From: Fibrobacteria bacterium
GTDB lineage: Bacteria > Fibrobacterota > Chitinivibrionia > Chitinivibrionales > FEN-1185
Direction of reading: 5' to 3'
Assembly: GCA_037447435.1 (NCBI GenBank)
Contig: JBBIGR010000002.1
Location: 32,001 to 96,000 of the forward strand
DNA length: 64,000 bases
Shown here: positions 43,979 to 61,943 of the stretch, piece by piece
Numbering within the stretch: the first letter of the stretch is position 1
Layout of the letters: each line of letters starts with the position of its first letter
Position numbers and translations under genes: made by a program
Notes under the pieces: model-generated
Database searches by the model: none
What the model saw: the letters and a program-made list of their open reading frames with translations, nothing else
Told to the model about the DNA's origin: nothing

Positions 43979-44093
43979 ACAGTTGACTTGATGTTCTGGA
44001 TTTGCTTATACTTCTATATTATTGTATTGGTTCATTTTGCCCTCGAATTTAATTTGTTCCATATTGCCAAACTATCGCAGAAGGAGTCTTGTT

Positions 44094-47000
44094 ATGCGCA
44101 GGGACTGTTTTAAAACGTTCTTTTTTGCTTCCGCCGTGTTCGTCTGCTGGCTTTGCTCCCCGGTTTTTTCCGACGAAGCATTCGACAAATTGATGGATGC
44201 TAAAAATTATTCGGAAGCGATCAACTATGCCGACAAGAAAATCCCGACCACCAACCGCGAAGCCGCAGTATGGGTAAAACTCGGCGTGGCCAACCTCGAA
44301 CTCGGGCTTGCCGAAAAAGCGCTCGCCTGTTATCTGGTTGCTAACCGGATGGACGCAAAAAACTACGATGCATTGCTGGGAAGCGCGAAAGTATATAATT
44401 CCCTTTCGCAACCTGCCAATGCCGCCGCAGCAGCCAAAAAGGCGCTCGACCAAAACTTCACTCCCGAGGCAAGCTGGGAATACGCCCGTGCGTGCATTGC
44501 GCTGAACAAACCGGCCGACGCAAAAAAGGCATTGGAAAAAGTGGCCGAATCCGACCCCAACAATTCGGCCGCAGTCAAAGAACTCGGGCTAATTTACTTT
44601 AACGAAAAAAACTACGCAAAAGCGGTCGACCTTCTTAAAATAGCCAATGTCAAGCAGCCCGATCCCGCGCTCACGCTAAAAATCGGTCTGGCCTACAAGG
44701 AATCCAACGGTCCCGATTCGGCACTTGTCTATCTTAAGGCCGCAAAAGACAAAAAGCCGACCGCTCCCGAAGCGGCATTCGAACTGGCCAAAATTTATTT
44801 CAATACGCAGCAATTCGACAAGGCTGCGGCCGAATTCGAAGACGCATCCGCCAAGATCCAACTCGGTGCGTTCGACTTCTGGGCATGGGGAACATCCTTG
44901 TCAAAAACAAACGGCAATGCCGATAAGATCGTCAAGATATTCCAACAGTCGCTCGATAAGTTCGGCGCATCTAAAAGCAAGGAAGCCCTCGAGGCGCATG
45001 CGGCGGTCGGCACTTATTATCTCGACAAGAAAAACTATCAGGCCGCAGTTTCGCATTTCCAGGCCATTTATGCGGCCGACAGTACAGGCAAGCTCGTGCC
45101 CGACATCAATTTTTCCCTCGCCCTTTGCAGTCAAGGGCTCGATTTGCCCAAAAAAGCCATTGCCCAATTGGAACGCGAGCTTGTCGTAAACAGCGGGAAC
45201 GTCGGCGCCTACGCGATGCTCGGCGACTTGTACGAAAAAGCCGGGCTCGCCGAAAAGGCGAAGGCCGTGTACGAAAAAATGCTCTCGCTCAACCCCAATA
45301 ATCCCAAGATACAAATGGCGCTCGGCGACTATTATCTAAAAGCAAAAAAGCACCAGGAAGCGCTGAAATATTACCAAAAAAGCTACACGCTGGAACGAAG
45401 CGCGCTTGCGGCACAGGGAATGGCGGTCTGCGCCTTTGCGCTCGAACAGCCCGACATGGCGCGCGATGCGGCCGAGAGCGCCTTGCATCTCGATGCCAAT
45501 TTGTGGGAACCCCATGTTGTTTTGTCCAAAATTTACTTAAAAGATAAAAACTTCAAAGACGCCAAAGACCAATTCGAATTCATGGTTAAGAAACAACCGA
45601 ATTCGAAGGAATACTGGCTGCAGCTTGCGGTATGTTACGAACAGCTCAACGACCCGGTCCGGTTGGCCGACATCGATAAAAAAATCATTGCGCTCGACCC
45701 GAAAAACATCGCGTCCCGTACCAGACTTGCCCGTTTTACGTTGTCAATGGGCGATACGAAAGCTGCGATCGAACAATATAAGGAACTTGCCGCTATCGCG
45801 CCCAAAGACGCCGAAGTGTTCAAGAACCTCTACGACTTGTCTGTCAAGAACAATGCTATGACGGAGGCCGCGCAGTATTTGCGTTCCTACGTACTTCTCA
45901 AACCGACCGACGCAAGCGCCCAGAAATCGCTCGGCGACATGCTGTACGACAAAAAAGACAATGCCGGCGCATTGTCCGCGTACCGCGCGGCGGTCAAGGC
46001 CGATCCTGCGATAAAAGGCGTTTACAAAAAGTATATCGAATTGCTCGGTACCGGCGCGGAACCCACGGAATTCGCAAGTGCGCTCAACGGCGCAATCGCA
46101 ACGAGTGAAGCCGATGCGCAAACCTATGCGATGCTCGGCACTATTTTTCTCAAACAGGGACAATGCCCCAAAGCCATAGAAATGTTCCAGAAATCAATTC
46201 AGCTCGATCCGCATAACACGAACGTCCTTACGATGCTCGCCCAATGCCAGGCTAAAACCGGCAACGCGAACGAGGCGATCATTTCGTACGAACAAGCGCT
46301 GGCAATGAACGACAAGGCGGTTGAAGAACTCAAAGCGCTCGGCGATTTATACCAGCAACAATCCAAGACGTCTCAAGCCGTGGCTTCGTATAAGAAATAC
46401 CTGGCAAAAGTTCCGGCAAATTCGAAAATCGCAAAAATCATTGCCGATTACGAATACGGTCAGAAAAATTATACCGAGGCGAATGTTTACTTTGCCAAGG
46501 TTACCGGCGAAACCGCGAAATCAGCGGACATGCTTTTCAAATACGGCCAATCGTGCTATTTGGCAAAAGATTTCAAAAAGGCCAAAGAACTGTATCTGCA
46601 GCTTGCTGCGGTTACCCCGAAAAATGCCGACGTGTTTAAAACGTTGTTCGACATTGTTTCCAAAGACAGCACGGCGAAAACGGAAGCAGTGTCGTATATG
46701 CAAAAGTACGTGGCATTAAAACCCGCCGACGCGTCTGCGCAAAAAGACCTCGGCGACATGCAGTACGACCTTAAAAACAACCTCGCCGCCCTGAGCGCTT
46801 ACCGTGCGGCGCTTGCCGCCGACCCCGCCATAAAGGGTGTTTACAAGAGATACGTCGAGCTCGTCGTGCTCAAGGGCACTTCCGAGGAACTGGTCAAAGC
46901 GCTTACCGGTGCGATCAGCGCCCAGGAAGCCGACGCCGCCATGTACGGGTCCCTCGGTGCCGTATACCAAAAACAGGGTAATTGCGCAAAAGCAATAGAC

Positions 47001-50000
47001 ATGTACCAAAAGGCGATCCAGCTCGACCCGCGAAATACCGCAGTGGTGTCGAGCCTTGCCCAGTGCCAGGCAAAGACCGGCGCGACCAGCGATGCCGTGG
47101 TATCGTACGAGCAGGCCATCGCCTTAAACGACAAGGCCGTCGACGAGCTCAAGGAACTCGGCGAATTATACATTGCCCAGAAAAAAACCGCCCAGGCGGT
47201 GACGATGTTTAAAAAGTACGTCGCGAAAAAACCGTCTGACGTTCGCGTCGCCAAATTTATCGCAGACAACGAATTTTCCCAGAAAAACTATGATGAGGCG
47301 ATCAAATATTACGCAATGGTCACCGGTACTGCGGCGAATTCCGCCGAGTTCCTTTCCAAATACGGCCAATCGTGCTACTTTGTAAAAAACTATAAAAAAG
47401 CAAAAGAACTGTTCGTCCAGCTCGCGACGATTTCGCCGAAAAATGCCGACGTATTTAAAACGTTATACGACATTGCGGAAAAAGATCCCGCAACAAAAGC
47501 CGAATCGCAAACCTATTTGCAGAAATATGTTTCCCTCAATCCGGGTGATGCGTCTGCGCAAAAAGACCTCGGCGACATGCAGTACGATGCAAAGAACCAA
47601 AGTGGCGCCCTTGCGGCGTACCGTGCGGCGATAGAGGCCGACCCGTCGATCAAAGGGATATACAAACGCTATGTCGAATTGGTAATGGCAAAAGGAACGT
47701 CCGAAGAACTTGTCAAGGCGCTTACGGGAGCCATCAAGGCGTCGGAAGCCGATGCCGCGATGTTCGCCTCGCTCGGCGCAGTATACCAAAAGCAACTTGC
47801 CTGGGCAAAAGCCGTGGACATGTATCAAAAAGCAATGCAGGCCGACCCGCGCAACGTTTCCGTTTTGTCGTCGCTTGCGAAATGCCAGGCAAAATCGGGC
47901 AATATCAACGATGCCGTTGTTTCCTATGAACAGGTCGTTGCCATGAATCCTGCGGCAATCGAAGAATCGCAGGAACTCGGCGACCTGTACGCAAAACAGG
48001 GCAAAATGAGTCAGGCAATGGCGATGTACAAAAAATGCCTGGAGAAAAAGCCCGGCGACTATCGTACAGCCAAAGCGGTCGGCGATTTTTCCTATACGCA
48101 GAAGAACTATGATGACGCAATCAAATACTATTCGATGGTTTCCGGGCCCGAAACCAAAAACGCCGATTTCTTGTTCAAATTCGGGCAGTCGTGCTATTTT
48201 TCCAAAAATTACAAAAAAGCGGCGGAGTTGCTCAATCAACTCTCGGCGCTTACGCCGGCAAACGCGGAAATTTACAAAACATTATATGATATCGCCGTTA
48301 AAAACAACGGTACGAAAACCGAACAAATTGCCTATCTCAAGAAATACGTCGCCGTAAAACCCGGTGATGCGCAAATGCAAAAAACCCTGGGCGATTTGCA
48401 GTTCGAGCAAAAAAATTCGGCAGCGGCGATTGCCGCATATAAAGCGGCGATCGCCGCCGATCCCGCGATCAAAGGCTTTTACAAAAACTATGTCGAACTC
48501 GTTTCCGCAAACGGGCTTCCCGAAGATATTGTCAAGGCCATGAAGGGTGCCGTCAATGCGGGCGAAGCGGATGCCGCAATGTACGAAGCGATCGGCGGGC
48601 TCGAACAAAAAGCCGGCGCGTACGCAAAAGCGATGGACTATTATCAAAAGTCTATGCAGCTCGACCCGCGTAACGTCAAGGTCCTTTCGAGCCTCGCGCA
48701 ATGCCAGGCCAAAACCGGCAATGTAAACGACGCGGTCATTTCCTATGAACAGGCGGTTGCGATGAATGCCGATGCGATAGAAGAATACCGCATACTCGGC
48801 GAATTGTACCAGCAGCAGAAAAAGCAGTCGCAATCCATAGCGATGTATAAAAAATATTTGGAAAAACGTCCTTCGAATTATACCGTCGCTTTGGCTGTCG
48901 GCGATTTTGCATACGGCCAAAAAAACTATGAAGATGCGGCCAAATATTATGCCATGGTCGGCGGCGAAATTTCGCGTAAAGCCCCGTTCCTGTTCAAATA
49001 TGCACAATCGTGTTATAACGCGAAAAACAACAAGAAAGCCGTTGAAGTATTGTCTCAACTGGCAACGCTTACGCCGCTTAATGCCGAAGTCTTTAAAATG
49101 CTGTACGACATAACCGTTGCGGATCCGACGACTAAAAAAGACGCCAGCGGGTACCTTAAGAAATATGTAAAGCTCAGTCCTACCGATGCCGCAGCCCAAA
49201 AGAATCTCGGCGATTTGTTGTTCGAAGAAAAAAATACGGTCGGCGCGCTTGCGGCATACAAGGCAGCGCTTACTGCCGATCCCTCTCTCAAGGGTTTTTA
49301 CAAACGATATGTTGAACTGGTTACGACGCAAGGTAATGCCGAGGAAACGGTCAAGGCGTTAAAAGGAGCCATATCCGCAGGCGAAGCCGATGCCCCGATG
49401 TACTTCAATCTCGGCAGCGTCTATCAGAAAGCGGCAAATTATTCAAAAGCGATAGAGATGTTTACAAAAGCGTTGCAGCTCGATGCGCAAAACATGAAAG
49501 CATTGTCTGCGCTTGCTTTGTGTCAGGCAAAATCGGGAAATGTGAAGGAAGCGACAATCACCTATGAACAGGTGGTCGCGCTCGATCCGAATAACGTCTC
49601 GGAACTTCGCGCGCTTGCCGATTTATACCTTCGGCAAAACAAAAACGACCAGGCTATGGGCATGTATAAAAAATGCCTTGAAAAGAACCCGGGCGATTTC
49701 AAGACCGCTATTGCGGTCGGCGACTATTCCTTAAAAATCAAGGATTATGACGCCGCGGTGAAATATTATGCCATGGTCGGCGGTGCCGACGCGAAAACGT
49801 CGGCGTTTTTGCTGAATTACGGCGAAGCGTGCTACAAGAGCAAGACCTGTTCCAAGTCCGTCGATATTTACAAAGAATTATTGGTCCTGACCCCGACCAA
49901 CGCCACGGTCGTTAAAACATTGTACGACATTGCGGTCAAGGCAAATAACACTGCCGACGAGATTGTTTACTTAAAGAAATATGTCGCCCTGAAACCCGGC

Positions 50001-51920
50001 GATGCGCAATCGCAAAAAGACTTGGGCGATTTGCTGTACGATCAAAAAGAAACGTCCGGCGCTCTCTCGGCATACCGTGCCGCCCTTAAAGCCGATCCGT
50101 CGTTAAAAGGCTTTTACAAGCGATATGTCGAACTCGTGACCCCGCGCGGCACACAGGAAGAAATCTCCAAGGCGCTTGCCGGAGCCGCTGCAGCAGGCGA
50201 AGCCGATGCGACGATGTATGCGACGCTCGGTGCAATTTACCAAAAACAGGCTTCTTACGAAAAAGCAATTACGGCGTATCAAAAAGCGTTGTCCCTCGAC
50301 CCTCGTAACATTGCAGTGCTTTCGTCGCTTGCGATGTGCCAGGCAAAGAGCGGCAACACGAACGAAGCGGTTATTTCGTATGAGCAGGCAACAGCCATGA
50401 ACCCCGACGCTGTCGCAGAATACAAGGCGCTCGGCGATTTGTATTCCAAGCAGAACAAAGCCGGCCAGGCGCTTGCAATGTATAAGAAATACCTGGAAAA
50501 AAATCCCAAAGATATGGATGTGGCCAATTCCGTTGGCCAGGCGGCCTTTGCAACCAAGAAATACGACGAAGCAGTGAAATACTTTGCCATGATGTCCGGC
50601 CCGGAAACAAACAGCATGGAATTCCTGTATGTGTACGGCCAATCCTGTTATTATTCGAAAGACTACAAAAAGACCATTGAACTTTTCGAAAAATACAGAA
50701 CAAACAATGCAAAACTCGCGACCAAACATGCGGGTGCAATGACGGTTGCAAAATTACTTGCCGATTCCTACGACAAATCTAACAACAGCGAAAAGGCCCT
50801 TGAACTGTATTCGCTGTATACCAAGACCGCTGCCGGCGCCAAAGACGCCGAAGCCTGCTTCCGACGGGCACAACTTACCGAAGCTTCCAGCCCGGCAACT
50901 GCGGCTAAACTCTATGAAGAGAATACGATATCGTTTCCCAAAGACTATCGCAATTTCCTGTATGCCGGCCTATACTATGCAAAGCAGAAAACAATGCTCG
51001 ATAAAGCGTTGGGTATGATGAAGAAATGTGCCGCGCTTGCCGATTCCATTCCGTCGTTATGGCTGGAAATGGGACAGGTGTACGGAAAACTCGGAAAAGA
51101 CAAGGAAGAACTTGAAGCGTATCGCAAGTTCATCCAACTCGATCCGGAAAACGCCGAAGCCTGCGGAAAAATCGGGGAAATCCTGCTTGCCAAGAAAAAG
51201 ACGAACGACGCCATGGTATTTTTGGAAATGGCCAATGCGCTCAGAGGTAACGACCCGAAATTCATGGTGCTTCTGGCTCAAGGATATCTGACGACCGACC
51301 GTTCCAAGGAAGCACTTGATTTATTGGAAAAGGCCGACAAGGTCAAGCCCGACGACGAAAACGTCAAGAGCATGCTTTTCGAATTATACAAGCAGACCAA
51401 TCAGCCGCAAAAAGCGCTTTCAGCCATTAAGGTAATTGCCGAAAAACGCCGCGACACGAAAACGAAACTCAAATATGCCGAGGCATTATATCTTGCGGGT
51501 TCCTACGCTCTTGCCGAAAGTGCGATTAAAGACATTACGGCAACCGAGCCGGAAAACATCGATGCGCTTATGATTTACGGTAAAACGCAATCGGTGCAGA
51601 ACAAGCTCGACGATGCCTTGGAAACGTACAAAGAAATATCCTATATCAATCCGAATTATGCGCCTGCATTGTACGAACGCGCCGAAATCTACGTTACCCA
51701 AACCAAGATCCAGTGGGCCAAAACGTTTTACGAACGCGCGCTCAAAGCCGATCCTAATTTCGCCCTGGCCGAACTCGGGCTTGCAAAGCTCGCAAAAAGC
51801 CAAAAAGATGTTGCAGGTTATCAGCTCCATCTGGAAAAAGCAAAAAAGCTGGATCCGAACAACAGGCTCATTCTCGATGAAACCGGCGGTGTAGCAAAGC
51901 CAAAAAAAACCGGTAAATAA
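44094..51920 (+). CDS. Giant exported TPR protein (2608 aa)
   Basis: AAGGAG RBS, signal peptide, TPR-like helices throughout. Confidence 0.92.
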   Translation: MRRDCFKTFFFASAVFVCWLCSPVFSDEAFDKLMDAKNYSEAINYADKKIPTTNREAAVWVKLGVANLELGLAEKALACYLVANRMDAKNYDALLGSAKVYNSLSQPANAAAAAKKALDQNFTPEASWEYARACIALNKPADAKKALEKVAESDPNNSAAVKELGLIYFNEKNYAKAVDLLKIANVKQPDPALTLKIGLAYKESNGPDSALVYLKAAKDKKPTAPEAAFELAKIYFNTQQFDKAAAEFEDASAKIQLGAFDFWAWGTSLSKTNGNADKIVKIFQQSLDKFGASKSKEALEAHAAVGTYYLDKKNYQAAVSHFQAIYAADSTGKLVPDINFSLALCSQGLDLPKKAIAQLERELVVNSGNVGAYAMLGDLYEKAGLAEKAKAVYEKMLSLNPNNPKIQMALGDYYLKAKKHQEALKYYQKSYTLERSALAAQGMAVCAFALEQPDMARDAAESALHLDANLWEPHVVLSKIYLKDKNFKDAKDQFEFMVKKQPNSKEYWLQLAVCYEQLNDPVRLADIDKKIIALDPKNIASRTRLARFTLSMGDTKAAIEQYKELAAIAPKDAEVFKNLYDLSVKNNAMTEAAQYLRSYVLLKPTDASAQKSLGDMLYDKKDNAGALSAYRAAVKADPAIKGVYKKYIELLGTGAEPTEFASALNGAIATSEADAQTYAMLGTIFLKQGQCPKAIEMFQKSIQLDPHNTNVLTMLAQCQAKTGNANEAIISYEQALAMNDKAVEELKALGDLYQQQSKTSQAVASYKKYLAKVPANSKIAKIIADYEYGQKNYTEANVYFAKVTGETAKSADMLFKYGQSCYLAKDFKKAKELYLQLAAVTPKNADVFKTLFDIVSKDSTAKTEAVSYMQKYVALKPADASAQKDLGDMQYDLKNNLAALSAYRAALAADPAIKGVYKRYVELVVLKGTSEELVKALTGAISAQEADAAMYGSLGAVYQKQGNCAKAIDMYQKAIQLDPRNTAVVSSLAQCQAKTGATSDAVVSYEQAIALNDKAVDELKELGELYIAQKKTAQAVTMFKKYVAKKPSDVRVAKFIADNEFSQKNYDEAIKYYAMVTGTAANSAEFLSKYGQSCYFVKNYKKAKELFVQLATISPKNADVFKTLYDIAEKDPATKAESQTYLQKYVSLNPGDASAQKDLGDMQYDAKNQSGALAAYRAAIEADPSIKGIYKRYVELVMAKGTSEELVKALTGAIKASEADAAMFASLGAVYQKQLAWAKAVDMYQKAMQADPRNVSVLSSLAKCQAKSGNINDAVVSYEQVVAMNPAAIEESQELGDLYAKQGKMSQAMAMYKKCLEKKPGDYRTAKAVGDFSYTQKNYDDAIKYYSMVSGPETKNADFLFKFGQSCYFSKNYKKAAELLNQLSALTPANAEIYKTLYDIAVKNNGTKTEQIAYLKKYVAVKPGDAQMQKTLGDLQFEQKNSAAAIAAYKAAIAADPAIKGFYKNYVELVSANGLPEDIVKAMKGAVNAGEADAAMYEAIGGLEQKAGAYAKAMDYYQKSMQLDPRNVKVLSSLAQCQAKTGNVNDAVISYEQAVAMNADAIEEYRILGELYQQQKKQSQSIAMYKKYLEKRPSNYTVALAVGDFAYGQKNYEDAAKYYAMVGGEISRKAPFLFKYAQSCYNAKNNKKAVEVLSQLATLTPLNAEVFKMLYDITVADPTTKKDASGYLKKYVKLSPTDAAAQKNLGDLLFEEKNTVGALAAYKAALTADPSLKGFYKRYVELVTTQGNAEETVKALKGAISAGEADAPMYFNLGSVYQKAANYSKAIEMFTKALQLDAQNMKALSALALCQAKSGNVKEATITYEQVVALDPNNVSELRALADLYLRQNKNDQAMGMYKKCLEKNPGDFKTAIAVGDYSLKIKDYDAAVKYYAMVGGADAKTSAFLLNYGEACYKSKTCSKSVDIYKELLVLTPTNATVVKTLYDIAVKANNTADEIVYLKKYVALKPGDAQSQKDLGDLLYDQKETSGALSAYRAALKADPSLKGFYKRYVELVTPRGTQEEISKALAGAAAAGEADATMYATLGAIYQKQASYEKAITAYQKALSLDPRNIAVLSSLAMCQAKSGNTNEAVISYEQATAMNPDAVAEYKALGDLYSKQNKAGQALAMYKKYLEKNPKDMDVANSVGQAAFATKKYDEAVKYFAMMSGPETNSMEFLYVYGQSCYYSKDYKKTIELFEKYRTNNAKLATKHAGAMTVAKLLADSYDKSNNSEKALELYSLYTKTAAGAKDAEACFRRAQLTEASSPATAAKLYEENTISFPKDYRNFLYAGLYYAKQKTMLDKALGMMKKCAALADSIPSLWLEMGQVYGKLGKDKEELEAYRKFIQLDPENAEACGKIGEILLAKKKTNDAMVFLEMANALRGNDPKFMVLLAQGYLTTDRSKEALDLLEKADKVKPDDENVKSMLFELYKQTNQPQKALSAIKVIAEKRRDTKTKLKYAEALYLAGSYALAESAIKDITATEPENIDALMIYGKTQSVQNKLDDALETYKEISYINPNYAPALYERAEIYVTQTKIQWAKTFYERALKADPNFALAELGLAKLAKSQKDVAGYQLHLEKAKKLDPNNRLILDETGGVAKPKKTGK
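45903..50700 (+). repeat. About six 819-bp (273-aa) intragenic super-repeats
   Basis: P.DA..QK.LGD marker at 45903, 46722, 47541, 48360, 49179, 49995; right boundary approximate. Confidence 0.9.
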
Positions 51921-52085: not shown

Positions 52086-53015
52086 ATGAATAAAGGTCGT
52101 AGTTGTCTTTTTGCCGTTATCCTGTTTGCAGCGGGAAGCGTTTTTGTTTGTTCTGCAAAACAGGGCGACGGTCATGCGGTTACAGTTCAGCCAAACGCGG
52201 TACCATCGGCAAAAACAAGCCTTAAAAACAAAATTACCTGGCACGATGGCATCACAGCCCTCAAAGCCGGCGAATTGACAAAAGGCCTTTTGCTTCTCGA
52301 CAGTTTTCGGATGAGCGGTTGCAAAAACGACACTTTCGTGGAACTGTACTCTAAAGAAGCGCTCAATTCGCTTGTGCCGCAAAAGCCCGACTCGGTGGTT
52401 TCCCTTTTTCGTCAATTCACCACCATCGACACCGGACTGTTTAACCCCGCGACCCATTTCTTCACTGTTTCGCAATCGGTCAACAGAAATACATCCAGGA
52501 TAGCGCCGTGTTACACCTACGGCGCCACGTTTGAATTGCGGAAACCCTTCAGGCTGGTTTTTTCCGGTCTGGCGATTACCGAACAAACGGTAATGAATAT
52601 CGGCTTTCATTACGACCCGACGGTCGACGCGTCGCTCAATCGCCAGCGATACGACCGCAAGGACATTGCCTCTTGCAAATTGTACATAGACCTCAGCGCA
52701 ACGCTGGGCTCCCCGATGCAATACATCCGCGACAAAATCAACGGCAAATTCGATTCGATTTCGGTGCGACACGATTTCAGCGACAAACAGGGAATTTCAT
52801 TGCGGTGCATAACGCGGTCCCGTAACAACGACGACGATTCCTATACTGCAATTGCCACCTTCGACAAGATGCTGCCCGACGTGCATACCCATTCCAATCG
52901 CCGGTCCGATACGACCATGACCCTGGTACGCTATACCCTCATCGCGCAATCCTGCAACGGCAATGCCGACCGCATCGAGGCGCGGTTTCTTACCGTACTG
53001 CATAATCTTTTATGA
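52086..53015 (+). CDS. Exported hypothetical protein
   Basis: 309-aa ORF, signal-like N-terminus, GAGG RBS; no family recognised. Confidence 0.65.
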   Translation: MNKGRSCLFAVILFAAGSVFVCSAKQGDGHAVTVQPNAVPSAKTSLKNKITWHDGITALKAGELTKGLLLLDSFRMSGCKNDTFVELYSKEALNSLVPQKPDSVVSLFRQFTTIDTGLFNPATHFFTVSQSVNRNTSRIAPCYTYGATFELRKPFRLVFSGLAITEQTVMNIGFHYDPTVDASLNRQRYDRKDIASCKLYIDLSATLGSPMQYIRDKINGKFDSISVRHDFSDKQGISLRCITRSRNNDDDSYTAIATFDKMLPDVHTHSNRRSDTTMTLVRYTLIAQSCNGNADRIEARFLTVLHNLL

Positions 53016-54209
53016 TATTTTTTGAGAGGTTTTCTTTTGGAGCTGCAGAAAAACAAAATACCCGCCGATCCAACCGATAGCCCCCAGACCTATCGCCAGC
53101 ACGATACTGCCGAAAAACCACTCTATGCCGCCGTTGATTATTGCGCCATATTTCGAGTGTGATGCGGCAACAACCATATACTGCGGGACAACTATTTTAC
53201 CGATGGCAACCGCTGCCGCAATGATAAAAGGCAAAAACGGGAACGACGAAATGCTGACCCCTAAAAAGGCTAACGGCCTATTGAGCTTAAGTAAAAAGCT
53301 CAGCGCCATGAGTGAAATTACCTGAAACCCGTAAATCGGCAATAACCCGAAAAATATCCCAAAAGACAACGAACTTGCGGCTCGTTTTGGCGTGCTGTGC
53401 GCGTGAAGTTCCCGTTTGAAAAGAGCCAGGATTTTCTCTTTCCACGAGGCACCCGGCATGTCGACGATTAAAAACGGAAGCAGTATTTTTATAAGCGCCG
53501 CCTTCGAATTTACTTTTGATATCCTTAAAAAATCACGTACCGGCCTGAAATGCGACACCCTGTTTTCCCGGGGTTCGTAATGACGATGTACGGGAATGCC
53601 GATTACGGGAATGCCTTGCCAGGCCGCTTTTATCAGAACGTCCTGCTCGTATTCATATCTGCCGCCTTTACATCCGAGTGCGGCGATACGGCTCAGCGGA
53701 TACGCGCGAAACCCCGATTGCGTGTCGGCAATGGCGATACCCGTGAAGAACCTGTACCAGAACGCCCCGAATTTCGCACCGACGGATGACCGCAGAGGCA
53801 TATTGTCTCGGTTTCCCCGCAACGTTCTTTGCCCAATGTAAAGTGCGTCCGGATTTTCCTTTAATTTTTCCGAAAACAGCGGTATGTCCTGCGGATAATG
53901 CTGGCCGTCGGCATCTATGGTAATTGCATGGGTAAAGCCCATGGACGAGGCAGTTTCAAATCCTGCCTTTAAAGCGAATCCTTTTCCGCGGTTTATTTCA
54001 AAATCGACAACGACCAGTCCTTTTACAGAAGACTGCATTCCCCGGATAATTTCTCCGGTAGTATCGGTCGAACCGTCATTGACAATGATAATATCCCGGA
54101 TATGAGGATGCGATTCGTTAACAACCCGCTCTATCGTGAGCGGGTTGTTATACGTCGGGACGATAATTGCGATGCGCACGGGCGAACCGTCGGATTTTGC
54201 CGTGTTCAT
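53010..54209 (-). CDS. GT2 glycosyltransferase fused to DUF2062 membrane domain
   Basis: VPTYNN, VNDGSTD, NRGKG, DADGQH, DTQSGFRAY, VSHFRP; C-terminal TM region. Confidence 0.88.
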   Translation of the reverse strand: MNTAKSDGSPVRIAIIVPTYNNPLTIERVVNESHPHIRDIIIVNDGSTDTTGEIIRGMQSSVKGLVVVDFEINRGKGFALKAGFETASSMGFTHAITIDADGQHYPQDIPLFSEKLKENPDALYIGQRTLRGNRDNMPLRSSVGAKFGAFWYRFFTGIAIADTQSGFRAYPLSRIAALGCKGGRYEYEQDVLIKAAWQGIPVIGIPVHRHYEPRENRVSHFRPVRDFLRISKVNSKAALIKILLPFLIVDMPGASWKEKILALFKRELHAHSTPKRAASSLSFGIFFGLLPIYGFQVISLMALSFLLKLNRPLAFLGVSISSFPFLPFIIAAAVAIGKIVVPQYMVVAASHSKYGAIINGGIEWFFGSIVLAIGLGAIGWIGGYFVFLQLQKKTSQKIS

Positions 54210-54212
54210 GAA

Positions 54213-55511
54213 TTACTTCGAAAGCTTGCGTTTGCGCTGATCGATGACCCGTATTTTTTTTGTGGTTGTTGCGCCGCGATAATGCTTTATGGTGGCCGCA
54301 TTCGACACCAGTACGGGCAATTGCACTCGCGCCTCGGTACGCAAATGGGAAATGATCTTTTCCAAATTCGAAGGCGGCGTCACTGCCTGGATGGTGACCC
54401 GGTCCGATAACGATTCGTCGTCTTCCAGAATTATGACATAATCCTCGATACCGTCTATGGCGTCCATGACATTGGTGATCGCAAGCGGATAAATCGTCGT
54501 GCCTTTGAATTTAATCATTTGAGATTTGCGGCCCATGATGGGCCCGATGCGCAAGGAATTCCTGCCGCAGGCGCACGTACCCGGCACCTTGAAAGTAATA
54601 TCGCCGGTGCGGTACCGTAAAAGCGGAATACCTTCGACGCCGAGCGGGGTAGCGACGAGCTCGCCGACCGCGCCGTCCTCGACGGGATTTCCCACTTCAT
54701 CGACTATCTCGGTATACACGAGTTCCGGATGCGCATGACCGCCGTATTGGGTCGTGCATTCGCAGTACGCGGTCGAAAGTTCGGTCGACGCGTACGTGGA
54801 AAAAACCTTTGCATTATATAATTCCTCGAGCGCTCTGCCGACCGAATTCAATTCCATGTCCTGGTTGCGCAACGCTTCGCCGATGGCGAATATTTTCTGT
54901 ACCGCGGAACCGCGCGTATCGAATCCTTTTTTGTTAAGCTCCTTGGCGAGCTTTAATAAAAACGACGGCACCCCGACGATGACGGTCGGTTTCAGCAATT
55001 CGATATAATGCTGCTGCATGTCGAACGGCAAGACGCCGATGCGGGCGGTATTCGCACCAAGCAACGTAAGTCCCCGATAATACGCCATGCCCGCGATGAA
55101 CAGTCGGTCGAGCGAGGCCAGGATTTGGACCTTGTCTTTGGCCGTGACCCCCGCGGCATGAAACGACAATGCCTCATTAAACGCAAGGCGGTCGATGTCG
55201 GCGGCGGTCATGGAAAAAACCAGCGGCTTTCCGGTAGAACCGGACGTTACTACGGTTTCCACGATTTGCTGCGGCACGACGCCCAGAAACAAATCGACAT
55301 CTTCGACCAGTTCCCGTTTTTCCGTAAGCGGCAGTTTTGCGATGTCCGAAATGGTTTTGATGTCTTCCGGGAAAACATCAAACAGCGAGTTTTGATAATG
55401 GGGAGACACTTCCTTGACATGACGCACCTGGTTGCGCACAGCGCGTACCGAGCGCGATTCTATTTCGTCTACAGACATGAATTCCCACGATAATTCGGGT
55501 CTAAAAACCAA
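54213..55511 (-). CDS. Phenylacetate-CoA ligase family (PaaK-like) adenylating enzyme
   Basis: TSGSTGKP, TYASTE, LRYRTGD, CACGR; start uncertain (TTG 55511 or ATG 55478). Confidence 0.85.
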   Translation of the reverse strand: MVFRPELSWEFMSVDEIESRSVRAVRNQVRHVKEVSPHYQNSLFDVFPEDIKTISDIAKLPLTEKRELVEDVDLFLGVVPQQIVETVVTSGSTGKPLVFSMTAADIDRLAFNEALSFHAAGVTAKDKVQILASLDRLFIAGMAYYRGLTLLGANTARIGVLPFDMQQHYIELLKPTVIVGVPSFLLKLAKELNKKGFDTRGSAVQKIFAIGEALRNQDMELNSVGRALEELYNAKVFSTYASTELSTAYCECTTQYGGHAHPELVYTEIVDEVGNPVEDGAVGELVATPLGVEGIPLLRYRTGDITFKVPGTCACGRNSLRIGPIMGRKSQMIKFKGTTIYPLAITNVMDAIDGIEDYVIILEDDESLSDRVTIQAVTPPSNLEKIISHLRTEARVQLPVLVSNAATIKHYRGATTTKKIRVIDQRKRKLSK

Positions 55512-57918
55512 GGATGATACCTCCTGCTGGAAAAAACATCAATTGATACACCGGCGTCGGCGCGGGCCGGGAATCGGCGTAAATTCTGGTCCATATATTT
55601 TTTTGGCCGTATACATTTTGCAAATCAAAATAGTAGATCAGTTGCAAAAAACCAAAGCCAAATCGGCGCTCCCACCGTATATCGAGTTTATGGTATGCAC
55701 CGTACACGTCCGCGTTTAGCGCGGCGTCGGAATCCACATACCATCGACGATACGTTTGATCGTATACCGGCGACGTGTGCGGCCGCGCTCCCAGATACCG
55801 CCATTTCGCGGAAATTTCGTTCCGGTCGCCAATAGGCATCACCCACGACAGCATGGCAAACCAGCGGTGGCGTTTCAGCGCCTGGTACCAGGCATAGCCG
55901 AGCAGTTCTTTTTTCCACCCGCCGCTCAGCGTGACCATCGAGACAAAATCGTAATCGCCCCGGTACCACTCGCCCTCATGGCCCGGCCGCATGTCCTGCA
56001 TTTCCGATTTCGACAGCGAATATGCCGCGCTCCAGGAAAACTCATTTGTCAATTTTTTCTGGGCGAACAATTCCAAACCGTAGCTGCGCCCCTTTCCAAC
56101 CGATACCAGCGTGTTGGACTGGGAAAACCGTTCGGCCGGCGATTTGGACGCATTCGACAAAAGCAACGACGAATCGAGGGGCATGTCCGACATTTTTTTG
56201 TAATATCCCTCGATAATGCATTTGACGCCGGTTCGTTCGAACACATATTCCAGCCCGCCGATACCGATCATGATGTTTTTCGGCTTCAGCCCTCTGTTGA
56301 AATCGGCCTTGACAATATCCGCGTAGTCCGGGTCCTGGTATTGTATGCCGAAGGCGGCTGTCGCCTCCAATGCCGACGACAGCATATACGACGCGCCGAG
56401 CCGGGGCGAAACCGTAACGCTCTTGATATACGGGAACGCGTCGAAACGCAGGCCCGGCATGATGCGGATGCGGCTTGCGGGCCTGACAATGGAAGAAATG
56501 TAGCCGCCGTATTTATACGCGACATCGGCGCCGTGTGCCGCCGATTCCTCGGTAACGGGCTTGCCGTTATTATCATATACGACCGTGCCCGCCGAATCGC
56601 CGGGACCGGCGTATGTTTTTAGGGTGTCGCTGTTTTGCCTGATCTCGATATCGAAATTCGCGCGCTTCACTACGCCGCCGATCATAAGCCTGTTGTTTCC
56701 CGGAAAATCGTAGGCAATTTGGCCTTTAAGCGCCTGTTCTTCTTCGGAAGAGGTATTCTTGTATACCGTGTCCTGGCCCGTGTACTCTAATCTGTCAAAA
56801 GTATTTCCCACCCCCGAAACCGTAAACGATGTCGAAACCGCCTTGGAAACGCTTTGTTCCCATGTCGCTCCCACCGCATAGACCTTGCCGCCCGAAAGTA
56901 TGGTCGACCCGACGGTACCGTACAAGGAATCGGCATTGTCGATTTCAATGCTGTTGTCGCCGTAAACGCCGTTTGCGTACACTTTCGTATCCGCCGTGTT
57001 ATACGCGAGCCTTGCCTGTGCGCCCCAGTATTTCGGAACGGCAACCGCTTCGGTGTTAAACCGGGAATTCGCAATGAAATCCAAATAGCTTTTGGTGGCC
57101 GACACCATGAAATTCGATTGCTTGGTCATCGGACCTTCGGCGTGAAAGCCCAAACCGGCAACGCCCAAATCGACACCGCCCAAAACCATGTCGCTGTTTC
57201 CGTCGCGCAGTTTCACGTCCAAAACCGACGAGGCCTTTCCGCCGTATTGCGCCGGAGGAGCGCCGGCATTGAACGTCAGGCCCTTTACCAGCAACGGATT
57301 GACAAGAGAAATGACCCCGCCGCCGCTGCCCTGTTCGGCAAAGTGGTTTGGGTTCGGTATTTCTATATTGTCCAGAAGAAAGAGGTTTTCGCCCGGCACG
57401 CCGCCCCGGACCACGATTTCATTGGTCTTGTCCCCGCCCGACGCAACACTGGGCAGGTTCTGCACGACACGCTGCACATCCATGATCGCACCGGGCGCAC
57501 GTAAAAGCTCGTCGTAGGTTATGATCTTTGTCGACGACGCCATGTCCGGAGGACGCCGAAAGGCATTTGCACGGACCACCATACGGTCAACCGGTGTCGC
57601 TTTGGCTGCGGGTTCAAGTTCGGCATCAAGCTGTTTTTTCTCCTCGCCCGATACGTACGCGTCGCCGATGAACGTCGCCTCATAATTTGGATGGGAAAAT
57701 AAAACCGAATGGCTTCCCGGCGACACCGAATCGAAAGAATAATTTCCCGACTGGTCCGTGTGCGCGGTACAGGCCGGGGCCGAGACGATCACGAGCACCG
57801 ACGGTATTTTTTTCCCCGTTTGCGCGTTTGTCACCGTGCCGGCAATGATTCCGGCAATCCCCGGGAAATAACAAATCAAACAAAAAAAGCAGATCGTTTT
57901 AAAAAACCGCATGCTCAT
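55501..57918 (-). CDS. TonB-dependent receptor with N-terminal carboxypeptidase-regulatory-like domain
   Basis: Plug motifs VRGG..ENLFLLDNIEI.NPNHF, QYGGKASSVLDV; barrel GLRFD, SPRLG; terminal Phe. Confidence 0.88.
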   Translation of the reverse strand: MSMRFFKTICFFCLICYFPGIAGIIAGTVTNAQTGKKIPSVLVIVSAPACTAHTDQSGNYSFDSVSPGSHSVLFSHPNYEATFIGDAYVSGEEKKQLDAELEPAAKATPVDRMVVRANAFRRPPDMASSTKIITYDELLRAPGAIMDVQRVVQNLPSVASGGDKTNEIVVRGGVPGENLFLLDNIEIPNPNHFAEQGSGGGVISLVNPLLVKGLTFNAGAPPAQYGGKASSVLDVKLRDGNSDMVLGGVDLGVAGLGFHAEGPMTKQSNFMVSATKSYLDFIANSRFNTEAVAVPKYWGAQARLAYNTADTKVYANGVYGDNSIEIDNADSLYGTVGSTILSGGKVYAVGATWEQSVSKAVSTSFTVSGVGNTFDRLEYTGQDTVYKNTSSEEEQALKGQIAYDFPGNNRLMIGGVVKRANFDIEIRQNSDTLKTYAGPGDSAGTVVYDNNGKPVTEESAAHGADVAYKYGGYISSIVRPASRIRIMPGLRFDAFPYIKSVTVSPRLGASYMLSSALEATAAFGIQYQDPDYADIVKADFNRGLKPKNIMIGIGGLEYVFERTGVKCIIEGYYKKMSDMPLDSSLLLSNASKSPAERFSQSNTLVSVGKGRSYGLELFAQKKLTNEFSWSAAYSLSKSEMQDMRPGHEGEWYRGDYDFVSMVTLSGGWKKELLGYAWYQALKRHRWFAMLSWVMPIGDRNEISAKWRYLGARPHTSPVYDQTYRRWYVDSDAALNADVYGAYHKLDIRWERRFGFGFLQLIYYFDLQNVYGQKNIWTRIYADSRPAPTPVYQLMFFPAGGIILGF

Positions 57919-58604
57919 CGTTGTGCCTTCCACCGAGGGAAATCGCTGAGGCTGACTATCGTATCGCGGGCAACGATGACGTGATCCAAAAGCGGCATTT
58001 CAAGTAATTTACAAATATTATACAGCCGTTCGGTGATTTCCCAGTCGGCCGGCGAAGGTTCCGCGGTGCCGCCCGGATGGTTATGCGCAATGATGAGCGA
58101 TGTCGCCTTGTATCGCAACGCTTTATCGATAATGGTGCGGGGATACACGGCGCATTGATTGACCGTTCCCTCGTGGACGATTTCGGTTTCGATCACATTG
58201 TTGCCGTTGTCAAGGAACAGCACCGCGACATATTCGTCCGGCTTATACCCGAAAGCGAACCGCAGGTATTCCTTTACGTCGTTACGATGATGCACAATCG
58301 GTTTTTTATGGTATTTCTCCGCGAGGCAATAGGCGGTCACGTCCCTGAACAATACCAATAAGAGGCCGGCCTTTCTGCCGATCCCGGGGACTTTCTCAAC
58401 GTCCTCGCTGTCGGCGTGCAAAAGCCCGGATAGGGTTTTATATTTGCGCAGCAGTTCTTTTGCAATGGGTTTTGTGTCTTTACGGGGAATCGCAAAGGTC
58501 AATATCAGCTCGACGATTTCATAATCCTGCAGCGACGCGCAGCCGTTTTCTTCGAATCGCGAAAGCAAACGGCCGCGATGTCCGGCATATCCTTCGTCGG
58601 GCAT
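57915..58604 (-). CDS. radC: RadC family JAB-domain protein
   Basis: GHRGRL, DYEIVELIL, EGTVNQ, HNHPGG..PSPAD, LLDHVI. Confidence 0.92.
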   Translation of the reverse strand: MPDEGYAGHRGRLLSRFEENGCASLQDYEIVELILTFAIPRKDTKPIAKELLRKYKTLSGLLHADSEDVEKVPGIGRKAGLLLVLFRDVTAYCLAEKYHKKPIVHHRNDVKEYLRFAFGYKPDEYVAVLFLDNGNNVIETEIVHEGTVNQCAVYPRTIIDKALRYKATSLIIAHNHPGGTAEPSPADWEITERLYNICKLLEMPLLDHVIVARDTIVSLSDFPRWKAQR

Positions 58605-58620: not shown

Positions 58621-59943
58621 TTACCACTCGATTGCCAAGGCAGCGATGGTCACCCCTGCCCCAACCGAACACAAGACGATTTTGTCGCCTTTATGCAGAT
58701 CTTTCTGTAATTCCAGTAAAGCAAGAGGAATGCTCGCGCTGGAGGTGTTTCCAACCCTGTCGATATTGATGTAAAACCGTTCGAACGGCACGCCGCCCTT
58801 TTGCGCGGCAGCCTTGAGAATGCGTGCGTTTGCCTGATGAGGAACAACCCAGTTTACATCCTGGGGCAACCATCCGCTTTTTGCCGCAGCTTCCGAGATA
58901 ATGGAAGCAAACCCGCCCGTGGCGAATCGGAACAGGGCATGCCCGGCGGTCCGGATCCAGGGGTTCAGGTTTTCAATGCCGAACGGGATTTTGAACCCGG
59001 GTACCGATCGCTTTGCAAGCAATAAACCCTTGGAATCGGCCTTGAGGACTGCCTGCTTGATTGCATGGCCCGGCCTGCTTCCGCTCACGATGGTTGCGCC
59101 GGCGCCGTCACCGAAGAGGAAATAGGTGCCCATATCTGTTTTGTCAATGAGTTGCGATTGAATTTCCGTACCCACGACCAGGATATTGTCTGCGGCACCC
59201 GATACGATCATGCCGCGCGCCATGGTAAGCGCGTATAGCCAGCCGGAGCAGGCAGCCTTGATGTCGAACGAGGGAATACCTCGTATGCCGAGCAAGTCCT
59301 GCAATATGCAGGCAGTGGACGGCATGGCCACATCCGGAGTCTCGGTCGACACGATGATCCCGCCGATGTCCTTTGCTTCAAGCCCGGAACGCTTGATGGC
59401 CTCTATTGCCGCCTGATACGCCATTTCCGATGGTTTTTCACCTTCTTTTGCCCAACGGCGTTCCCTGATGCCGGTCACGCCGAAAATGTAATCTTCGGTA
59501 ACGGCGGGAAATTCTTTCAATAATTCTTTGCTGGTCACCACACGGTCGGGCAAATAGCCGCCCAATCCTAAAATGCAAACATTACCCGCAACCGTAACGC
59601 TTGGCGAAGGCTGAGCAGGGAGCACGTCGGATTTCTCCACGTCCGATTTCACCGCCTGTGCTGCGGGAATGGAGTTTTTCATGCTCACGTCGCTTGTTTC
59701 AATTTCCAAAACAGCTGCTTCAAACGAAATGGTCTCGCCTTCGACGCACAGCACGCGAACGACGGTTCCGTCACAGGGCGCTTCAAAATCGAACGCAGCC
59801 TTTGCGCTTTCGATTTCACCCAAGATCTGACCTTTTGTAAATTTTGAGCCGACCGACACATTCCACTTCGTAATGGTGGCTTCTGTTTCCGCTGCGGCTT
59901 GGGACGGCAAATACAATGCGATGGTAAATACGTCAGCACTCAC
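58621..59943 (-). CDS. Lipoyl-domain / beta-ketoacyl-ACP synthase III (FabH) fusion
   Basis: N-terminal ITKWNV..G..EIESAKA..EAPCDG; FabH triad AACSG, PHQAN, GNTSSASIP; GTGA overlap with E1 gene. Confidence 0.88.
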   Translation of the reverse strand: MSADVFTIALYLPSQAAAETEATITKWNVSVGSKFTKGQILGEIESAKAAFDFEAPCDGTVVRVLCVEGETISFEAAVLEIETSDVSMKNSIPAAQAVKSDVEKSDVLPAQPSPSVTVAGNVCILGLGGYLPDRVVTSKELLKEFPAVTEDYIFGVTGIRERRWAKEGEKPSEMAYQAAIEAIKRSGLEAKDIGGIIVSTETPDVAMPSTACILQDLLGIRGIPSFDIKAACSGWLYALTMARGMIVSGAADNILVVGTEIQSQLIDKTDMGTYFLFGDGAGATIVSGSRPGHAIKQAVLKADSKGLLLAKRSVPGFKIPFGIENLNPWIRTAGHALFRFATGGFASIISEAAAKSGWLPQDVNWVVPHQANARILKAAAQKGGVPFERFYINIDRVGNTSSASIPLALLELQKDLHKGDKIVLCSVGAGVTIAALAIEW

Positions 59944-61943
59944 GATTTCTCTCCAATCAATTGTGATAATTCTTTTGCAACCTGCTCACGCGATGGCCGG
60001 TAAAACTGTTCGAGCTCCGCGGCAAACGGTACCGGCATGGGCGGAGCGCTTATCAAAACCGGCTGTTTTTTCAAAAAGGAAAAACATTGCCTGCAAACAT
60101 GAGAAATGATCTGGTCGCCCAACCCGGCGATCTCCGTGCTTTCCTGAACGACAAGCAATTTCCCCGTCTTTTTCACCGATTCCAATATATTATTCAGGTT
60201 GAGCGGCGCCATGACGAAAGGATTCCATATGTCAACCTTCGCCTTGATGTCCTGACTCGCGTTGATTGCAATGTCGCACATGGCGCCGAACGCGACGACC
60301 GTACACTCGTCGCCGTCGGCATATTTGCGTTCCCGCCACACCTTGGCGCAATCGCCGTCGAACCGCACGTCTGTTCCGCGCACGCTGTTGTACAGCAATT
60401 TGTGCTCGAAAACAAAACAAGGGTTGGGGTCGTAAAAACCCGCAACAAGCGCTTCGAACATTTCTTGCGGTGTAAACGGATATAAAAGCTTGACGCCGCA
60501 GAATCGCGACCAAAGCCCTTCGAATTCCCCCGAATGAAACGCGCCCAGGGTGACGCCGCCGCCGCACGGCAAACGGAACAGCACCGGCGCTCCGTTGCCG
60601 CTGCGGAAATACCAGGTGCCGCAATTGAGACCGAGTTGCGTTGCGCATTCGGTTGCAAAATCGGCAAATTGAAATTCGACGATCGGCAGCGCTCCGGCTT
60701 GCGATGCGCCGAGGGCAAAACCGGTTATTGCCGATTCTGCAATAGGCATGTCCATGACGCGGTCGGTGCCGTATTTTTCAAACAGGCCTTTACCTGTTTT
60801 AAATGCGGAACCGTACGGCCCCACATCGAGTCCCAAAAGCGCGGCACGCGGGTTATTGGATAATATATAATCCTGCGCCATGGTCACGGCGTTGATGAAC
60901 TTGACTTTTGTCGCCTGAAACGGCGGGACGGTCCGAGAATGGTCCCCTTCCTTAAAAACGGGCGAATGCCCCAGCGCGACGACCGGATTGGGCCGCGGCG
61001 GAATCAGCGCGGCCTTGACCGCGGCTTCGACTTCGGCCGCAATCGGCTCTTCTATGGCAGCGATGGCATCGTCCGTCAATCCGACGTCCAAAAGTGCGGC
61101 GCGCGCCCGCATCAGCGGTTCGCGTTTGAGCCACTCGTCTTTTTCCTCTTTTGTCACATACTCGGCCTTATCGTAGACCGCATGACCTTCCAATCGCAAT
61201 GTTTGACTTTCAAGAATGAACGGCAGAGACGTTTCGTCCATTTCTGCGAGGGCGTCGCATACGGCGCTGTATACTTCCCAGACGTCGGTGCCGTCTATCG
61301 TTTTGCCGTTGATGCCGTATCCGCGCGCACGCTCCGAAAGGTTTTTGCAATTGTATTGGAGTTTTGTCGGCGTGGAATAGGAATAGTGGTTGTTCTCGAT
61401 AAGAAACAAAACAGGGACCTTACGCACCGAAGCGATATTCACGGATTCGTGAAATTCGCCTTTGCTGCTGCCGCCGTCGCCGATAATGGCCAGGCCGAAG
61501 GCGTCTTCGCCGCCCTGGCGCGCGGCCCAGGTTCCGCCCACGACAACCGAAAGCATATTTGACAAATGACTAATCATGGGAAAACGCCGCATGGCCGCAT
61601 TGCCGTGATGGACATTGCCTTCGCGCGCGTGCGACGGGCTGTCGGCATTGGCGATGTATTGGCAGAACATCTGATAGGGCGTATCGCCCAAAATCATATG
61701 CGCGGCAAAATCGCGTTGCATCAGGGACGTCACATCTTTACCCGGGCGAAGCGGAAGGCTCATACCGACGCTGGTCGCTTCGTTTCCGACGCTCAGAGTA
61801 ACGGTTCCCTTTACATACCGTTTAACGTAAAGTTCATTGAGCTTTTCTTCCATTTTCCGTGAAAGAAACATCCAGGAATAGGCGAGAGGAAGAAAATCCT
61901 CTTTCTTCATTTTTTGCGGATAACGCGGAATTGCGGTATTCAA
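59940..61943 (-). CDS. 2-oxoacid dehydrogenase E1 alpha-beta fusion (TPP-dependent)
   Basis: GDGG...ENN TPP motif; DMPIAESAITG, EFQFADF, FEHKLLY; TTG start behind GAGGG. Confidence 0.9.
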   Translation of the reverse strand: MNTAIPRYPQKMKKEDFLPLAYSWMFLSRKMEEKLNELYVKRYVKGTVTLSVGNEATSVGMSLPLRPGKDVTSLMQRDFAAHMILGDTPYQMFCQYIANADSPSHAREGNVHHGNAAMRRFPMISHLSNMLSVVVGGTWAARQGGEDAFGLAIIGDGGSSKGEFHESVNIASVRKVPVLFLIENNHYSYSTPTKLQYNCKNLSERARGYGINGKTIDGTDVWEVYSAVCDALAEMDETSLPFILESQTLRLEGHAVYDKAEYVTKEEKDEWLKREPLMRARAALLDVGLTDDAIAAIEEPIAAEVEAAVKAALIPPRPNPVVALGHSPVFKEGDHSRTVPPFQATKVKFINAVTMAQDYILSNNPRAALLGLDVGPYGSAFKTGKGLFEKYGTDRVMDMPIAESAITGFALGASQAGALPIVEFQFADFATECATQLGLNCGTWYFRSGNGAPVLFRLPCGGGVTLGAFHSGEFEGLWSRFCGVKLLYPFTPQEMFEALVAGFYDPNPCFVFEHKLLYNSVRGTDVRFDGDCAKVWRERKYADGDECTVVAFGAMCDIAINASQDIKAKVDIWNPFVMAPLNLNNILESVKKTGKLLVVQESTEIAGLGDQIISHVCRQCFSFLKKQPVLISAPPMPVPFAAELEQFYRPSREQVAKELSQLIGEKS

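Follow-up and report, generated by a model that had tools for sequence, protein, structure and literature searches.

A fused 2-oxoacid dehydrogenase E1 and a lipoyl-FabH fusion as a candidate pair for coenzyme A-free priming of fatty acid synthesis

We analyzed a 64,000-nucleotide stretch of a Fibrobacteria genome (GenBank assembly GCA_037447435.1, contig JBBIGR010000002.1, positions 32,001 to 96,000; hereafter the window), in which 2 adjoining genes encode a fused E1 alpha-beta protein of the thiamine diphosphate (ThDP)-dependent 2-oxoacid dehydrogenase type and a fusion of a lipoyl domain with FabH, a ketoacyl-acyl carrier protein synthase III (KAS III). The E1 open reading frame contained the Pfam domains E1_dh (residues 25-318), Transket_pyr (347-519), and Transketolase_C (543-655), together with the features of heteromeric-type E1s, including the GDG..NN ThDP motif, the alpha His291 equivalent, and the beta Glu and His equivalents. 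The fusion gene begins at a GTG, preceded by a GGAG-type ribosome site, and its first 4 bases overlap the E1 stop; the overlap as such had been noted in an earlier reading of the window made from the sequence only.

The fusion protein matched Biotin_lipoyl at residues 12-80 (E 3e-11), ACP_syn_III, and ACP_syn_III_C in Pfam and scored 312 bits against NCBIfam PRK09352 (cut-off 249) and 283.7 against TIGR00747 (below the cut-off of 292.1), with no Pfam match to the E2 catalytic core, PF00198. Lys48 lies in an EIESAK motif and is invariant across 126 aligned sequences. The AlphaFold model (126 sequences; mean predicted local distance difference test [pLDDT] 87.4, predicted template modeling score 0.72) has 2 well-folded domains with a disordered linker between them; Lys48 sits in the turn that connects strands 40-46 and 50-54, and pLDDT is mostly above 85 in the FabH domain. 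C112, H244, and N274 of the E. coli enzyme have Cys232, His369, and Asn399 as their counterparts here, so an intact Cys-His-Asn KAS III does occupy the place of the E2 core, as the sequence-only reading had it. That reading had also described an E2-like lipoyl domain and Ala/Pro linker; the lipoyl domain with its EIESAK Lys held up, while the linker is short (~30 aa), only modestly enriched in Ala and Pro, and without an E1/E3-binding domain.

Table 1. Positions of the gene pair and its features within the window
Feature	Position	Strand	Size and basis
Fused E1 alpha-beta (ThDP-dependent 2-oxoacid dehydrogenase E1)	59940..61943	-	667 aa; Pfam domains and motifs
Lipoyl-domain::FabH (KAS III) fusion gene	58621..59943	-	440 aa; Pfam, NCBIfam
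Lipoyl domain, residues 12-80	59704..59910	-	Pfam PF00364; pLDDT 84-94 over residues 21-90
Lys48, predicted lipoylation site, hairpin tip	59800..59802	-	Alignment and AlphaFold model
Disordered linker, residues 92-119	59587..59670	-	pLDDT <50; no PF02817 match
KAS III / FabH domain, residues 122-440	58624..59580	-	Pfam, NCBIfam, alignment, model
Cys232, catalytic cysteine (E. coli C112)	59248..59250	-	Alignment
His369 of triad	58837-58839	-	Alignment
Asn399 of triad	58747-58749	-	Alignment
Tyr152 and Val156, replacing CoA-binding Trp32 and Arg36	59476..59490	-	Alignment to 1hn9
Met271, replacing Arg151	59131-59133	-	Alignment to 1hn9

The fusion is real and conserved. Both Pfam domains were present in 119 of the best 120 relatives listed (56-89% identity), and 80 of 84 loci were kept from GTDB genomes of Fibrobacterota, Planctomycetota, and Opitutales, to which Atlas clusters added Spirochaetota. 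An assembly artefact, which the sequence-only reading had allowed for, is thus refuted by hundreds of full-length relatives, isolates included, and by the spread of the loci over 3 phyla. The N-terminal domain could in principle be a biotinyl carrier, as PF00364 spans both lipoyl and biotinyl domains, but its NCBIfam matches were E2 lipoyl domains and its motif is ESAK, DSAK, or ESDK rather than the Met-Lys-Met of biotinyl domains; we give an artefact or a biotinyl carrier next to no credence.

The contacts of FabH with the coenzyme A (CoA) adenine are Thr28, Trp32, and Arg151, and Arg36 contacts pantetheine, according to the available part of PMC4606726. The window fusion has Val148, Tyr152, Val156, and Met271 in place of Thr28, Trp32, Arg36, and Arg151. 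Across 266 fusions, Thr28 was kept in 1, Trp32 in 0, Arg36 in 2, and Arg151 in 50, whereas all 4 residues were present in canonical FabH controls from related genomes (24/24 each) and in most stand-alone FabHs (88/109, 102/109, 91/109, and 96/109, respectively), the latter being taken from an unbiased library search of 150 hits less 41 that were lipoyl-bearing, fragmentary, or off-length. The equivalents of the Cys, His, and Asn triad and of Arg249, which we take to be the basic acyl carrier protein (ACP)-docking residue of FabH (Arg374 in the window protein), were invariant in 266/266 fusions, and the Asn247 equivalent was invariant as well. The replacements at the CoA-contact positions show conservation of their own (Tyr/Val in the short form), which would be expected of a new docking surface. 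As markers of branched-chain specificity, Phe304-to-Val and Phe87-to-Met were both rejected, Val occurring in 5/24 and 10/109 controls and Met in 17/109; Asn210 was dropped as a diagnostic residue, being found in only 8/109 stand-alone FabHs. In 2 planctomycetes (G004 and G005; L139-L142), the fusion was the best TIGR00747 match, the other aligned KAS III paralogues were without Trp32 and Arg249, and no canonical FabH was seen.

The phylum set comprised 226 genomes: 50 of 67 in the window's order had the fusion, as did 1 of the 159 outside it. The cognate E1 clade was identified in exactly the same 50 genomes of that order, 3 of these E1 matches, like the G026 fusion, being fragments at contig ends. 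The 2 genes likewise occurred together in the same 11 of 151 genomes in the order of the planctomycete G005; in Opitutales, though unlinked, they shared one set of 15 genomes among 121, where the G302 fusion match covers the FabH part only and the G327 E1 is split over 2 frames. In a comparison of domain architecture and synteny, as the sequence-only reading had suggested, the E1 lay no more than 210 bases upstream in 46/46 loci of Fibrobacterota and Planctomycetota for which upstream DNA was available, and was adjacent in 0/28 such Opitutales loci; 6 of the 80 loci had too little upstream DNA to score. The Opitutales E1 alpha-beta is 43% identical to the window E1 and falls inside its clade at support 100/99. 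The Opitutales fusion has an extra E3_binding domain and adjoins pyrG, often with kdsA, and P0284, with a lipoyl domain, E3_binding, and a short-type FabH, bridges the window and Opitutales types; in both the Opitutales and P0284 forms, a full E2 N-terminus (lipoyl plus E3_binding) stands ahead of FabH. The relatives are not independent, yet 3 orders, including the unlinked case, agree on the co-occurrence of E1 and fusion.

The E2 core PF00198 had no match in 16 of the 50 carriers of the window's order, including all carriers of 3 genera, and 14 of these 16 were also without any other E1 match; the remaining 34 carriers had at least 1 E2 core. None was found in 2/2 genomes of the genus of G003, and the 2 Pelagicoccus-type genomes had 2 E2s, each of which shares an operon with an E1 or E3 of its own. 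The source genome of the window (99.6% complete) has a single PF00198 match, SucB, located on contig C3 between sucA and the citrate synthase gene, and a lipoamide dehydrogenase (E3) on contig C21, in agreement with the earlier remark that neither an E2 core nor an E3 lies in the window. As no other E1 of the pyruvate dehydrogenase (PDH)/branched-chain 2-oxoacid dehydrogenase (BCKDH) alpha-beta type was found in this genome by tblastn, and SucB is its only E2 core, the window E1 has no cognate E2. The possibility that the fusion is a scaffold only, its FabH still taking free acyl-CoA from a separately encoded canonical E2 (e.g., SucB) and its lipoyl domain being vestigial or regulatory, fits the presence of at least 1 E2 core in the source genome and in 34/50 carriers as well as the retention of Trp32 and Arg36 in the single-chain relative P0310. 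With 16 carriers showing no E2 core match, Lys48 invariant, and E1 co-occurrence exact even where the genes are unlinked, we consider it improbable.

LipA, a lipoate-ligase-family gene, a glycine-cleavage locus including GcvH, and type II fatty acid synthesis genes were also present in the source genome, along with a canonical plsX-fabH-fabD-fabG-acp-fabF operon on contig C27 (genes other than fabH named by reading translations), so the window FabH is additional to the housekeeping FabH. We further observed a third FabH over the cut-off beside a PilZ gene (L015:1153-2196, C1), a weak StlD/DarB-like ketosynthase (L016:1075-2226, C23), and a DpgA-like type III polyketide synthase (PKS) (L017:985-2166, C24).

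The exact co-occurrence in 3 orders and the remodeled CoA site point to a dedicated E1/lipoyl-FabH partnership without an E2 core, likely a 2-protein priming machine in which FabH stands in for the E2 acyltransferase core. That E1, lipoyl domain, and FabH also occur joined in 1 chain is in keeping with this reading. Reductive acylation of lipoyl domains by E1 is established chemistry, and FabH condenses by a ping-pong mechanism. We propose that the E1 with ThDP would decarboxylate a 2-oxoacid, probably branched-chain, and reductively acylate the predicted lipoyl arm at Lys48, from which the acyl group would pass straight to Cys232 by thioester exchange, this transfer being the new step that we infer. 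FabH would then condense the acyl group with malonyl-ACP with no acyl-CoA step, the arm would be reoxidized by the separately encoded cellular E3, and type II fatty acid synthesis would take up the 3-oxoacyl-ACP and turn it into anteiso and iso fatty acids. The decarboxylation and the reoxidation of the arm follow established E1 and E3 chemistry; lipoylation of Lys48 and use of the shared E3 are predicted. Direct transfer from the lipoyl arm to the Cys without CoA, whatever the substrate, seems to us quite probable, and the complete proposal of CoA-free priming of branched-chain fatty acids by the pair somewhat better than an even bet.

Alternatively, the thiolase-fold domain could be a replacement E2 transacylase, moving the acyl group from dihydrolipoamide through Cys232 to CoA or holo-ACP, with condensation left to a canonical FabH or FabF. 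The domain does occupy the exact position of the E2 core, a second FabH is generally kept in carriers (L013 in the source genome), and FabH is generally known to have a transacylase side activity. However, the His244, Asn247, Asn274, and Arg249 equivalents are invariant, and CoA as the acceptor is disfavored because the adenine clamp is lost in the 2-gene type; a transacylase therefore appears unlikely, though less so than a scaffold.

The substrate was considered separately from the transfer. The best match of the window E1 among solved alpha chains was human BCKDH (E 1e-31; the best PDH reached 9e-25), which leans weakly toward a branched-chain substrate. VorB, of the anaerobic alternative route, was over the cut-off in 8 of the 67 genomes (G011-G016, G063, G064), all among the 17 non-carriers, and in 0/50 carriers, a contrast that rests on 2 lineages; 2 carriers had sub-cut-off VorB matches, and ilvC was present in 5/5 carriers tested. 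Among the 121 Opitutales genomes, 15 had the 2-gene type, 5 the single-chain FabH type, and 29 the single-chain E1-lipoyl-E2 type, and these 3 architectures overlap in 1 genome only, G302, which likewise favors a branched chain. Chitinispirillum alkaliphilum carries the fusion (P0104). The fatty acids of this species are dominated by aiC15:0, with iC16:0, whereas Chitinivibrio alkaliphilus, compared here by its lipids, has 16:0/16:1 and Fibrobacter succinogenes 13:0/15:0, as given in the accessible part of PMC4814513. Opitutaceae are described as generally rich in aiC15:0 in the portion available of PMC13274419, but Coraliomargarita too makes iso-C14:0 and aiC15:0 in the available text of PMC10288369 and PMC3035286. 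From the VorB pattern and the carrier lipids, a branched-chain substrate would, given CoA-free transfer, be fairly probable. For the branched-chain 2-oxoacid at which the sequence-only reading had guessed, VorB exclusion and an aiC15:0-rich carrier thus provide indirect support, and the E1 pocket, without the BCKDH residues, does not. That reading had also left fatty acid and polyketide priming side by side; the fatty acid side is favored, since no PKS-like cluster was conserved around the 80 fusion loci. A Qnc-type nonribosomal peptide synthetase (NRPS) neighbor cluster with a dedicated ACP was likewise not conserved there.

The same CoA-free lipoyl-to-Cys channel may instead serve a non-branched substrate, such as pyruvate or 2-oxobutyrate, or else a larger acid of aromatic or polar character, and lead to straight, odd-chain, or specialized lipids. 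The E1 pocket motifs, which partly resemble those of PDH/acetoin-type E1s, would agree with this, as would the lack of any NCBIfam E1 family over the cut-off for the window E1 and the FlxY/PaaK-like ligase and glycosyltransferase family 2 (GT2)-DUF2062 genes next to the fusion in 10/80 and 8/80 loci. Those neighbors are, however, confined to Fibrobacterota loci, the best solved alpha-chain match is to BCKDH, VorB exclusion and aiC15:0 in a carrier point the other way, and an acetyl route would be redundant alongside the canonical plsX-fabH-fabD operon and PFOR of the source genome. We regard a non-branched substrate as unlikely, if the least unlikely of the alternatives.

A number of observations weigh against CoA-free priming of branched-chain fatty acids. 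Thr, Gln (His in most relatives), and Gly replace BCKDH Phe85, Tyr113, and Met146 (human numbering), presumably the substrate-pocket residues of BCKDH E1, in this E1 clade, and PF02817, the E1/E3-binding domain, had no Pfam match in the window's fusion, which is left with no E1/E3 docking domain. P0310, which Anthocerotibacter panamensis encodes as a single chain, retains both Trp32 and Arg36 (by eye; outside the 266), and loss of the CoA site is therefore no necessary result of fusion. Arg151 survives in the 50 fusions counted above, 4/109 stand-alone FabHs lost both Trp32 and Arg36, and 4/6 unfused KAS III paralogues were without Trp32. Retention of LipA (63/67 genomes of the window's order) and E3 (62/67) was rejected as specific evidence because both are also found in non-carriers and the source genome has a glycine-cleavage system. 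Most genomes are metagenome-assembled, which makes single absences weak, and 9 of the 17 non-carriers have neither VorB nor the fusion; the VorB contrast carries the 2-lineage limit given above. In the accessible part of PMC4814513, Chitinispirillum alkaliphilum has a multi-subunit enzyme as its second 2-oxoacid:ferredoxin oxidoreductase. The source genome has PFOR, 2 OFOR/KOR-type, and 1 IOR-type oxidoreductases, and promiscuity of these enzymes remains a rival source of acyl-CoA. The mechanism itself is a proposal from sequence, distribution, and model data. Single-chain E1alpha-E1beta-lipoyl-FabH proteins (P0241-P0243, P0310, L184-L188) were rejected as orthologues, as their E1s fall in a clade of their own, whose sister group is the single-chain E1-lipoyl-E2 chains, and keep the BCKDH-type Phe/Tyr/Met motif; with clade and pocket motif both different, they are analogues. 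A further weakness is that the 29 Opitutales genomes of the single-chain E1-lipoyl-E2 type were assigned by score and length, with the E2 core read in 3 and Pfam-checked in 1.

The single-chain E1alpha-E1beta-lipoyl-E2core proteins (~1000-1040 aa; L189:703-3813, L190:1447-4575, L191:1480-4494) hold the whole E1 and E2 in 1 protein and are nearly exclusive with the FabH-bearing forms. P0310 corresponds to WP_218080544.1 of the cultured cyanobacterium Anthocerotibacter panamensis. A common origin of the fused FabH domains had support 60/94 in one tree and was split in another; the Fibrobacterota domains nest among planctomycete ones, which hints at transfer. Fusions of FabH with a short-chain reductase (FabG-like) of ~890 aa (P0244-P0280) were also found, 2 of them named from Acidobacteriota.

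Following the fusion on the same strand (53010-58604, -), the window contains radC, a TonB-dependent receptor, a FlxY/PaaK-like ligase (432 bits, cut-off 520), and GT2-DUF2062. radC recurred in 15/80 loci, the ligase in 10/80, and GT2 in 8/80, all of them Fibrobacterota, and these genes and the receptor were rejected as parts of the system because their conservation ends there. The promoter and terminator scan gave counts near chance (7 against 4.7 and 13 against 9.7), and the search of sequencing runs listed no holder of RNA data. A 2632-aa protein that consists almost entirely of TPR repeats and probably bears a signal peptide is encoded at 44022-51920 (+).

In the textbook account of branched-chain fatty acid synthesis, acyl-CoA comes from E2 or a ferredoxin oxidoreductase, and FabH by definition works on acyl-CoA. 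We found no description of the E1/lipoyl-FabH architecture in the open-access literature, and the family is, as far as we found, uncharacterized. It is an even chance, in our view, that the pair represents a fourth outcome of 2-oxoacid dehydrogenase chemistry, in which the lipoyl arm is the direct acyl donor to a condensing enzyme and supplies CoA-free branched primers, displacing VOR and E2-containing BCKDH, having arisen with at least 2 E1 lineages, and underlying the anteiso and iso lipids of Chitinivibrionales, Opitutales, and certain planctomycetes. If so, delivery of acyl groups to FabH by a lipoyl arm would pair enzyme and carrier in a new way, ketoacids would be committed to lipid synthesis rather than catabolism, the anteiso-C15:0 of an anaerobe from a genus in which no E2 core was seen would be accounted for, and the annotation of hundreds of proteins labeled plain FabH would be corrected. 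Two soluble proteins and cultured carriers, Pelagicoccus and Synoicihabitans among them, make the pair testable, and it may offer a compact 2-gene module for branched fatty acids in laboratory strains.

The canonical route, in which the BCKDH complex feeds FabH through acyl-CoA, is set out in the available part of PMC9328018. Like that complex (E1 alpha2beta2, E2, and E3; E1 structures 1dtw, 1um9, and 2bp7), the system described here has a heteromeric-type E1, a lipoyl domain, and E3 and LipA in the genome, and its end products are likely the same; unlike it, the module is without an E2 catalytic core, FabH is fused to the lipoyl domain, and acyl-CoA is likely bypassed, while the E1 has fused alpha and beta parts, belongs to a separate clade, and is without the Phe/Tyr/Met pocket. 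The fusion shares with FabH/KAS III (E. coli 1hn9; 1ub7 the nearest solved structure, at E 1e-65) the fold, the triad, and the Asn247 and Arg249 equivalents. It differs from canonical FabH in its N-terminal lipoyl domain, in the replacement of Thr28, Trp32, and Arg36 with Arg151 relaxed, in lying over the PRK09352 cut-off yet below that of TIGR00747, and in coexisting with a canonical fabH. By its predicted domains and residues, it would belong neither with E2s, having no core, nor with canonical acyl-CoA FabHs, having no CoA clamp. The single-chain E1alpha-E1beta-lipoyl-FabH proteins, as far as we found also uncharacterized, have a common domain order with the pair and no E2 core, but their E1s fall in another clade with a BCKDH-like motif. 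QncN/QncL/QncM and SclQ1-4 are glycolyl-loading cassettes that keep an E2-type acyltransferase domain, as described in the accessible text of PMC6335953. The precedent that the sequence-only reading drew from QncN/QncL therefore applies to the feeding of biosynthesis by dehydrogenase-like modules, in which a ThDP enzyme and a lipoyl domain give an acyl unit to biosynthesis via a carrier protein, and not to the replacement of the acyltransferase, which QncL retains (PMC6335953, available part). The Qnc/Scl systems use ketose phosphates and an E2-type acyltransferase to load ACP for NRPS, whereas in the window a condensing enzyme stands in place of the acyltransferase, and by analogy the pair would act like BCKDH and FabH together, minus E2 and CoA.

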